63,019 nucleotides of DNA from Catajapyx aquilonaris (lineage: Eukaryota): positions 1-63,019 of the forward strand of contig JYFJ02002109.1 of the NCBI GenBank assembly GCA_000934665.2. The letters are read 5' to 3'. The translations under genes and the position numbers were made by a program. Below the pieces are notes generated by a model. The model was not told where the DNA came from. It worked only from the letters and a program-made list of their open reading frames with translations, and made no database searches. This document shows, piece by piece, positions 17,023 through 18,198 of the stretch; the first letter of the stretch is position 1; each line of letters begins with the position of its first letter.

Positions 17023-18198
17023 ATGAAGCAGTTCGTGTTACTTTTTGTCGCCTCCTGCGTTGTGGCATCCACTCTCGCCAAGCCCTTCCCAAGTAAGTGT
17101 CTATCATTTTCAAATAAGTTGAAAAGCATTTAGCTAACAAAAATCGTTATTTTGTTTGCAGCTTTTAAGAGGGCTGCTGATTCCGATGAGTCTGACGACC
17201 AACAAGGATGGTTCTCTGACGAGAAGAGGTCTCTTTTCAAGAGGTTTGCTGCCCCCGATTCGTTCGAAGATTTCCTGGAATCGCTAGAAGAGCAAGGGTC
17301 TTTCTCTGACGAAAAGAAGAGGGCAGCCAAGCCCGACTCTGATGAGTCTGACGACCAACAAGGATGGTTCTCTGATGAGAAAAGGTCCGTCTTCAAACGT
17401 GCTGCCAACATCTTCAAGCGCTTCGCTGCTCCCGACTCCCTGGAAGATATCCTGGAATCGCTGGAAGAGCAGGGATCTTTCTCTGACGAGAAGAGGGCAG
17501 CCTCTGAATCGGACGAATCGGACCAGCAGGGATGGTACTCAGACGAGAAGAGGTCTGTCTTCAAGCGTGCTGCCAACATCGTGAAGCGTGCTGCCTTCCC
17601 CGATTCGTTCGAAGATTTTCTGGAATCACTAGAAGAGCAAGGTTCTTTCTCTGACGAAAAGAAGAGAGCAGCCAAGCCCGACTCAGATGAGTCTGACGAC
17701 CAACAAGGATGGTTTTCTGATGAGAAGAGGTCTCTTTTCAAGAGGTTCGCTGCACCCGATTCTTTCGAAGATTTCCTGGAATCGCTAGAAGAGCAAGGTT
17801 CTTTCTCTGATGAAAAGAAGAAGAAGAGGTCTCTTTTCAAGAGGCTCGCTGCACCCGATTCTTTCGAAGATTTCCTGGAATCGCTAGAAGAGCAAGGTTC
17901 TTTCTCTGACGAAAAGAAGAGGGCAGCTAAGCCCGACTCTGATGAGTCTGACGACCAACAAGGATGGTTTTCTGATGAGAAGAGGTCCGTCTTCAAACGT
18001 GCTGCCAACATCTTCAAGCGCTTCGCTGCTCCTGACTCCCTGGAAGATATCCTGGAGTCGCTGGAGGATCAGGGATCTTTCTCTGATGAGAAGAGGGAGG
18101 CCAAGCCCGACTCAGATGAGTCTGACGAACAGCAGGGATGGTATTCAGACGAGAAGAGATCCGCCTTCAAGCGTCTCGTCAAGCGTTTTGCCTTCTAA
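17023..18198 (+). CDS. Orphan secreted polyprotein precursor, 368 aa, with KR-flanked acidic peptide repeats; exons 17023-17092 and 17162-18198
   Basis: Signal MKQFVLLFVASCVVASTLA; 69-nt intron GTAAGT..GCTAAC..TTTGCAG (phase 1); six copies of (D/E)SDESD..QQGW(F/Y)SDE and six of DS(F/L)ED(F/I)LESLE(E/D)QGSFSDE separated by KR/KKR; AATAAA at 18207. Confidence 0.92.

Follow-up and report, generated by a model that had tools for sequence, protein, structure and literature searches.

In the precursors of bee apidaecin, ant hymenoptaecin and yeast alpha-factor, a signal peptide is followed by tandem repeats of a dibasic site, X-Ala or X-Pro dipeptides and the peptide itself, and the sections of PMC3415428 that describe them report cleavage by a dibasic endoprotease, action of a carboxypeptidase and then removal of the X-Ala/X-Pro dipeptides. 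The repeats of the ant hymenoptaecin gene occupy a single exon. Orcokinin (NFDEIDRSGFGFN) is presented in part of PMC5656890 as a non-amidated acidic neuropeptide. The subject of this report is a locus of related layout at positions 17023 to 18198 of the + strand in a stretch of 63,019 nucleotides (nt) of Catajapyx aquilonaris DNA (contig JYFJ02002109.1), referred to here as the window. Also relevant for comparison are the granins, which are acidic proteins of the secretory pathway, rich in dibasic sites and S-x-E motifs, and of which we know no arthropod example. Polyphosphoserine adhesive and biomineral proteins (tube-worm cement, crustacean cuticle and gastrolith phosphoproteins) are Ser/Asp/Glu-rich with dense negative charge possible; to our knowledge these proteins act whole and are without regular Lys-Arg (KR) sites.

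Judged from its sequence, the locus holds a genuine and intact gene, restricted to its lineage, for a predicted secreted multi-copy peptide precursor. Cleavage at basic sites would divide the precursor into six type-A and six type-B acidic peptides, 12 tiny pieces, and a short N-terminal propeptide. As in the apidaecin, hymenoptaecin and alpha-factor precursors, the signal peptide is followed by repeated dibasic sites and X-Ala/X-Pro dipeptides, and as in ant hymenoptaecin the repeats occupy one exon, here exon 2; this places the locus in an architecture class, not in a homology family. The products of that class are cationic antimicrobial peptides or a hydrophobic pheromone, whereas those predicted here are polyanionic, with a side-chain net charge of -6 to -8 in the A and B peptides, and the cationic or Pro-rich mature peptide of antimicrobial polyproteins is absent (10 Pro in 344 residues). 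The locus further departs from the class in interleaving two types of peptide, in placing additional tri- and pentapeptides between twin KR sites, in having spacers other than EAEP, and in lacking sequence similarity. With the orcokinin and pedal peptide precursors it shares multiple KR-flanked, non-amidated, acidic copies with an aromatic residue after Gly; multiple non-amidated copies between KR sites are not family-specific. Acidity, dibasic sites, and S-x-E motifs are held in common with granins and with acidic, S-x-E-phosphorylated pieces of vertebrate prohormones; granins are long and non-repetitive, whereas the present precursor is a strict short tandem repeat, and no Granin domain was found among the best 25 of 26 Pfam families at an expectation value (E) of up to 10. 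It resembles the polyphosphoserine proteins in being rich in Ser, Asp and Glu and differs from them in that a conserved, predicted convertase site delimits each unit. Within multi-copy, convertase-processed precursors, the predicted polyanionic products, the interleaving of A and B, the twin KR sites, and the apparent dipeptidyl-aminopeptidase leaders would be unusual.

Gene structure and predicted processing

Direct reading of the sequence at 17023-18198 gave a compact, intact two-exon gene. The ATG at 17023 opens exon 1, the product of which is MKQFVLLFVASCVVASTLAKPFP plus one base, and the predicted signal peptide has a Lys in the n-region, a hydrophobic core of 12 residues, and Thr-Leu-Ala at positions -3 to -1. 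The splice donor reads CAA/GTAAGT at 17093, a CTAAC branch-like site is found near 17133, and the acceptor, TTTTGTTTGCAG/C, ends at 17161. From these canonical signals and the reading frame we infer a splice at 17092/17162, where the junction codon becomes ACT (Thr). The coding lengths of 70 and 1037 nt add up to 368 codons plus stop, for a product of 368 amino acids (aa). Exon 2 is open for 354 codons from stop to stop and, according to its residue counts, has no Met codon, so that the leader exon and the splice are required for the protein to start. Transcription probably starts near 16991, within an initiator-like element that agrees with the initiator consensus YYANWYY. The full set of gene signals (TATA box, initiator-like element, ATG with hydrophobic leader, in-phase GT-AG intron, TAA, and two AATAAA) supports a gene on the + strand. 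The coordinates of these features and of the units are given in Table 1.

The predicted protein uses 16 residue types, with 90 Asp and Glu, 58 Lys and Arg, 50 Ser, and 35 Phe, and the exon 2 product is devoid of Cys, His, Met, and Thr. An earlier reading of the sequence alone (hereafter the sequence-only reading) had described a signal peptide, six A and six B units, a common C-terminus, and KR sites, all of which were present. The type-A peptides are AADSDESDDQQGWFSDE, AAKPDSDESDDQQGWFSDE (three copies), AASESDESDQQGWYSDE, and EAKPDSDESDEQQGWYSDE; the type-B peptides are FAAPDSFEDFLESLEEQGSFSDE (two copies) with its LAAP and AAFP variants, and FAAPDSLEDILESLEEQGSFSDE with its variant ending in EDQGSFSDE. 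Each of the 12 units ends in QG(W/S)(F/Y)SDE, followed by KR (8), KKR (3), or KKKKR (1). Both types follow the plan x-A-x-P-D-S-x-E ... Q-G-x-(F/Y)-S-D-E, with B longer by four residues, and are evidently related to each other. Alternation of A and B had been described and holds overall, with a single break at B4-SLF-B5. Tandem Repeats Finder returned a 168-nt period (2.8 copies, 77% matches) and the 99-nt duplication listed in Table 1, with scores at the repeat exon of 525 and 382, above what chance would give; the placement of the 99-nt duplication on the units accounts for the KKKKR site as well as for B4-SLF-B5. The spacers SLF (three copies), SVF (three), and AANIF (two) were as described, and the tiny pieces also include SAF, AANIV, LV, and the C-terminal FAF.

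The basic sites number 24 (20 KR, three KKR, one KKKKR), and all 24 Arg residues stand in Lys-Arg dipeptides, with no RK, no RR, and no furin-type site (R-x-[K/R]-R or R-x-x-R) in the precursor. This supports the secreted polyprotein with dibasic sites that had been proposed. The Arg codons are AGG (14), CGT (6), CGC (2), and AGA (2); use of both Arg codon families indicates that the ordered K-R dipeptide, and not just positive charge, has been kept. Such conserved pairs are what a convertase site predicts, and would be of the simple dibasic (Kex2/PC2-like) kind. The residue directly before the basic site is Glu in 12 cases, Phe in 10, and Val in two. Gly precedes none of the 24, in agreement with the earlier statement that an amidation signal is lacking, and the C-termini of the peptides would thus be free carboxyls.

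All 15 peptides of at least five residues, including every long one, start with X-Ala, and 10 of the 12 A and B units start with X-Ala-X-Pro. Positions 1 and 3 of these leaders vary (A/E/F/L and K/A/F), and positions 2 and 4 do not change, even between FAAP and AAFP, in which Phe sits at different places. By analogy with the systems introduced above, the X-Ala-X-Pro leaders, a feature overlooked in the sequence-only reading, probably point to a dipeptidyl aminopeptidase that trims the N-termini step by step. The released peptides had been given as DS-initiated cores; these are present, and the peptides as cut at the basic sites are longer, with AA, AAKP, AASE, EAKP, FAAP, AAFP, or LAAP before the core. 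According to portions of PMC9233930, dipeptidyl-peptidase sites are common among the antimicrobial-peptide precursors of Drosophila.

Differences between copies, with a pN/pS of about 0.05-0.1, were concentrated at third codon positions, to which 11 of the 13 variable columns in A2, A4, A5, and A6 and 17 of the 23 in B1-B6 belong. The proportions of synonymous (pS) and nonsynonymous (pN) differences were 0.68 and 0.031 for the pooled A core, 0.50 and 0.031 for the pooled B core, and 0.61 and 0.087 for the KR-tripeptide-KR linkers. The acidic units are therefore conserved at least as well as the linkers, which argues against their being mere spacers. Length differences between copies were whole codons in every case, and the 1.1 kb contained neither frameshift nor stop, despite synonymous sites near saturation between older copies.

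Table 1. Features read at the precursor locus, with window coordinates.
Feature	Positions	Strand	Basis or remark
TATA box TATATAAAT	16956..16964	+	About 33 nt 5' of initiator-like TCACTCT; read from sequence
Initiator-like element TCACTCT	16989..16995	+	Matches YYANWYY; read from sequence
Exon 1 coding sequence: Met, predicted signal peptide MKQFVLLFVASCVVASTLA, followed by KPFP and a single base of codon 24	17023..17092	+	
Intron, 69 nt, phase 1, GTAAGT...CTAAC...TTTTGTTTGCAG	17093..17161	+	Canonical signals and frame
Exon 2 coding sequence, carries all repeats; TAA at 18196-18198	17162..18198	+	Single open frame
A1: AADSDESDDQQGWFSDE + KR	17173..17229	+	
Linker SLF + KR	17230..17244	+	
B1: FAAPDSFEDFLESLEEQGSFSDE + KKR	17245..17322	+	
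A2: AAKPDSDESDDQQGWFSDE + KR	17323..17385	+	
Linkers SVF + KR, AANIF + KR	17386..17421	+	
B2: FAAPDSLEDILESLEEQGSFSDE + KR	17422..17496	+	
A3: AASESDESDQQGWYSDE + KR	17497..17553	+	One codon deleted, Tyr variant
Linkers SVF + KR, AANIV + KR	17554..17589	+	
B3: AAFPDSFEDFLESLEEQGSFSDE + KKR	17590..17667	+	
A4: AAKPDSDESDDQQGWFSDE + KR	17668..17730	+	
Linker SLF + KR	17731..17745	+	
B4: FAAPDSFEDFLESLEEQGSFSDE + KKKKR	17746..17829	+	
Linker SLF + KR	17830..17844	+	
B5: LAAPDSFEDFLESLEEQGSFSDE + KKR	17845..17922	+	
A5: AAKPDSDESDDQQGWFSDE + KR	17923..17985	+	
Linkers SVF + KR, AANIF + KR	17986..18021	+	
B6: FAAPDSLEDILESLEDQGSFSDE + KR	18022..18096	+	
A6: EAKPDSDESDEQQGWYSDE + KR	18097..18159	+	
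C-terminal pieces SAF + KR, LV + KR, FAF	18160..18195	+	
Recent 99-nt tandem duplication, 2.0 copies, 97% matches	17723..17920	+	Tandem Repeats Finder
First AATAAA	18207..18212	+	9 nt past stop codon
Second AATAAA	18226..18231	+	
Antisense open frame, 312 codons stop to stop, Ser-rich repeat	17130..18068	-	No signal peptide; ends inside sense intron

Search for relatives

Homology searches returned no relative of the precursor, in line with the earlier statement that no family could be recognised. A word-based search of 5.8 billion proteins yielded 8000 scored candidates in the 189-602 aa class, with no relative among them, and 3415 candidates in the 30-188 aa class, none at E <= 1. The sole match of phmmer against 1.84 billion representatives of all lengths (P0003; E 1.4e-4, 28% identity, 539 aa) was rejected as an unrelated protein with a different, 33-residue acidic repeat and without the KR architecture. 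Pfam matches were examined as the best 25 of 26 families at E up to 10. NepR (29.4 bits), Birna_VP3 (29.4), DUF2092 (28.7), and WHD_MCM8 (27.7) were nominally over their cut-offs. The scores of these bacterial, viral, or nuclear families add up across the repeats, their best stretches span mostly few residues (NepR and WHD_MCM8 14 each, Birna_VP3 31, DUF2092 51), and the matches were rejected as repeat-inflated artefacts. There was no usable match in the ESM Atlas and none among PDB sequences, and of the 17 and 597 pattern matches in two scans of JGI metagenome contigs, none was confirmed by tblastn. The precursor gene lies in an intergenic region and occurs as one copy in the window, with no paralogue elsewhere in it. 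The peptide string GWFSDE was not found in full-text literature, and of six other peptide strings only 'ileslee' and 'qqgwf' occurred among the matches listed, in unrelated papers.

A link to orcokinin through the DExD...GF pattern was rejected, the best local scores being 15 (A) and 12 (B) and no better than chance, with shuffled units equalling the orcokinin alignment scores in 2488/5000, 1867/5000, 4734/5000, and 4359/5000 trials. No homology to orcokinin or pedal peptide precursors was found by phmmer or the word-based searches, and on present evidence the precursor does not appear to be a member of that family. No known precursor family was matched, the supplements of PMC4770511 (about 1,300 neuropeptide and protein-hormone precursors from 29 species, including basal hexapods and crustaceans) lying outside the comparison.

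The orphan status of the gene is supported within sampling limits and may partly reflect a pancrustacean lineage that is poorly sampled and unannotated, since the window's own proteins are absent from databases and the best named matches of the neighbouring Rgp1 are only 65-73% identical. A fast-evolving peptide precursor could also have relatives beyond the reach of these searches.

Function of the predicted peptides

Arthropod genes that combine a signal peptide with many KR-flanked short repeats are mostly neuropeptide precursors. This base rate, together with sequence-specific conservation that includes non-charged residues, led us to rank a signalling role first: the acidic peptides may be the functional products and may act as extracellular signalling peptides of a new non-amidated, neuropeptide- or hormone-type family, an assignment that we put forward tentatively and at somewhat less than even confidence.

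The steps leading to such products can be proposed from sequence logic. The signal peptide would be removed, probably after Ala19, and a Kex2/PC2-type dibasic convertase would cut after each of the 24 Lys-Arg sites. A carboxypeptidase would strip the basic residues and leave free-acid C-termini, and a dipeptidyl aminopeptidase would probably trim X-Ala and X-Pro dipeptides from the N-termini; if this route is used, the final products would be exactly the DS-initiated 15-mers and 19-mers of the sequence-only reading. The expected end products are six peptides of the DSDESDDQQGWFSDE type, as disordered polyanions, and six of the DSFEDFLESLEEQGSFSDE type, as anionic amphipathic helices, in a 1:1 ratio. 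For the B core DSFEDFLESLEEQGSF the helical hydrophobic moment is 0.41, a value reached by 206 and 218 of 10000 shuffles (about 2%), and for the A core it is 0.07, effectively none. The shared C-terminal QG(W/S)(F/Y)SDE might serve as a recognition element, Ser phosphorylation at S-x-E is possible, and processing most likely yields the tri- and pentapeptides between twin KR sites as by-products.

Several points weigh against this signalling role or against the gene model on which it depends. Receptor ligands do not usually carry a net charge of -6 to -8 or lack amidation. In the relevant parts of PMC3415428 and PMC9233930, the X-Ala/X-Pro signature is better known from immune or venom peptides than from neuropeptides, and the former describes RR or KR sites in ant hymenoptaecin, so that KR sites also serve outside neuroendocrine cells. 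The signal peptide was judged by eye. No homologue was found in any species searched, and between-species conservation thus cannot be shown; the copies compared within the gene share a history and are not independent samples. The antisense pN/pS ratios (0.066 and 0.142) match those of the sense strand (0.065 and 0.110), as third positions coincide, and in the linkers the values were 0.179 antisense versus 0.142 sense; the substitution pattern shows constraint and does not choose the strand. Finally, no RNA run was listed for the locus. The only sequencing run with the locus (X1, of unrecorded kind) contributed 12 short contigs, at least 99% alike, between 17190 and 18053. Eight of these measure 48-276 nt, and none of the contigs reached exon 1 or the intron, the final 145 nt of coding sequence, or the flanks. 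These contigs carry no information on expression or splicing, and the run could be that of the source sample itself. As noted in part of PMC4888303, multi-copy precursors can be expected to break up at their repeats.

Of 50 Ser, 31 stand in S-x-E, seven in S-x-S, four in S-x-D, seven in S-x-F, and one in S-x-Q, which bears out the earlier claim that most are in S-x-E or S-x-S context. S-x-E was expected at 7.3 +/- 2.3 of 50 from 5000 within-peptide shuffles, none of which reached either the observed 31 or the 42 of 50 in S-x-[E/D/S]; in unit-level shuffles, where only two unit types are independent, the enrichment gave p = 0.027 and 0.032. Arthropods possess a Fam20C-type kinase. Parts of PMC12122004 and PMC12650399 give S-x-E/phosphoserine as the FAM20C motif, and this substrate motif is present in the precursor as a motif only, with no phosphate implied.

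Two proposals build on this pattern. The first, which we consider possible but unlikely, would have a new polyanionic family, with 12 copies per precursor, in which a 15-mer that is disordered and rich in Asp and Ser and a 19-mer that forms an anionic amphipathic helix, sharing the QGx(F/Y)SDE tail and released by an alpha-factor-like route, are multiply phosphorylated at S-x-E and jointly serve either as acidic signalling peptides of a new class or as soluble regulators of calcium or mineral. If so, phosphopeptides cut by convertase from a polyprotein would be new to arthropods. The sequence-only reading had instead proposed that the A and B peptides are phosphorylated by a Golgi Fam20C-type casein kinase and are not ligands, serving as polyanionic Ca-binding peptides in mineral control, adhesive, or saliva or venom. 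The Ser contexts and the match to the FAM20C motif speak for this, as does the charge of -6 to -8 that the peptides carry before any phosphate, and the pancrustacean matches of the neighbouring Rgp1, with malacostracans among the best, make a calcified cuticle possible. Against it, the enrichment comes down to two independent unit types, S-x-E arises readily in Ser/Glu-rich sequence, and binding by charge alone needs no strict conservation of the non-acidic GW[F/Y] or of the F/L spacing. A mineral, glue, or venom role has no specific support, and we know of no arthropod precedent for mineral-binding peptides cut from a polyprotein at dibasic sites. We regard this proposal as improbable.

We hold it similarly improbable that the gene encodes a humoral or exocrine polyprotein of apidaecin, hymenoptaecin, or alpha-factor design, made in fat-body-like, haemocyte, or gland cells for defence, for venom, or as a waterborne or contact pheromone. 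The repeated order of dibasic site, X-Ala-X-Pro, and peptide is the architecture given for those precursors in portions of PMC3415428, the dipeptidyl-peptidase sites in part of the Drosophila account (PMC9233930) point the same way, and the B peptides are predicted amphipathic helices. The strongly anionic peptides, neither cationic nor Pro-rich, argue against it, as do the lack of sequence similarity to any such precursor and a spacer that is not of the acidic EAEP type.

The acidic units might alternatively be charge-balancing spacers for ten tiny active peptides, S-[L/V/A]-F and, after removal of Ala-Ala, N-I-[F/V]. All seven copies of the tripeptide keep Ser and Phe, with synonymous TCT/TCC changes, and acidic spacers are usual in neuropeptide precursors. 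The acidic cores are nevertheless conserved at least as well (pN 0.031 versus 0.087 in the linkers), unmodified, free-ended tripeptides would be poor and short-lived ligands, and charge balance hardly explains 12 long, sequence-specific spacers with a common heptapeptide, so that we give this explanation little credence. About as improbable is a protein secreted uncleaved, as a blocky polyampholyte whose acidic blocks and K/R/F-rich linkers form a coacervate, glue, or matrix. Its composition (90 Asp and Glu against 58 Lys and Arg, 35 Phe, no Cys) would suit such a material, and a single-sequence AlphaFold2 model had no globular fold (mean predicted local distance difference test score, pLDDT, 43.9; predicted template modelling score, pTM, 0.18), with short, low-confidence helices over all six B cores and the basic linkers. 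A charge-only role would, though, tolerate exchange of K and R, yet all 24 Arg remain in ordered K-R while the codon family changes.

That there is no functional + strand gene at all, the locus being a repeat that is not transcribed or is in decay, or the coding frame being the Ser-rich antisense one at 17130-18068, is very improbable: the missing RNA run and homologue and an antisense frame open for 312 codons with equally low pN/pS would allow it, but the full set of gene signals is found on the + strand only, the antisense frame is a featureless Ser-rich one that has no signal peptide and ends in the sense intron, and the 1.1 kb has stayed free of frameshifts and stops with synonymous sites near saturation. 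The + strand was called on those gene signals and on the featureless, leaderless nature of an antisense frame that ends in the sense intron. This frame is probably a side effect of the way the sense strand is built from GAN/TCN codons. Such a frame can mislead gene callers as well as selection tests applied to repeats of this kind.

Neighbouring genes and significance

Upstream of the precursor gene lies a large gene with low-density lipoprotein (LDL)-receptor class A repeats (LDLa; 6789-10154, +), for which Pfam reported five stretches within 6789-7511 alone. Its three long open frames at 7602-8066, 8157-8615, and 9714-10154 encode near-duplicate LDLa module sets starting with DCA(A/V)TDRP, which suggests recent tandem duplication of an exon or segment. 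A syndecan gene (14127-14645, -; Pfam Syndecan, E 3.2e-16) is divergent from the precursor gene at a distance of about 2.4 kb, and its frame contains a signal-peptide-like start, an acidic ectodomain bearing Ser-Gly, a transmembrane segment, and the start of a cytoplasmic tail. Downstream are exons of Rgp1, a partner in the RAB6A guanine nucleotide exchange factor (RAB6A-GEF), at 21692-23337 (-); its best named matches come from mantis shrimp (stomatopod), cockroach, decapods, and thrips (65-73% identity), with springtail at 59%. These neighbouring genes give no hint of the function of the precursor. Elsewhere in the window, an open frame at about 36180-36207 (+) ends in RERERERERERERS, a short GA-type dinucleotide microsatellite, and a 126-codon open frame at 62432-62812 (+), which has no Pfam match at E 0.001 and carries Cys-x2-Cys close to its end, may be a mobile-element fragment.

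Should the gene be merely another lineage-specific neuropeptide-like precursor, its description would be a useful annotation and no surprise. In practical terms, it provides exact masses for peptidomics and draws attention to a gene that annotation by homology would overlook, and its dense S-x-E pattern suits it well for testing how the secretory pathway phosphorylates small arthropod peptides. If the peptides are made, they would constitute a new arthropod family that is highly acidic and not amidated, and the alpha-factor/apidaecin processing design would extend from cationic defence peptides to anionic products.

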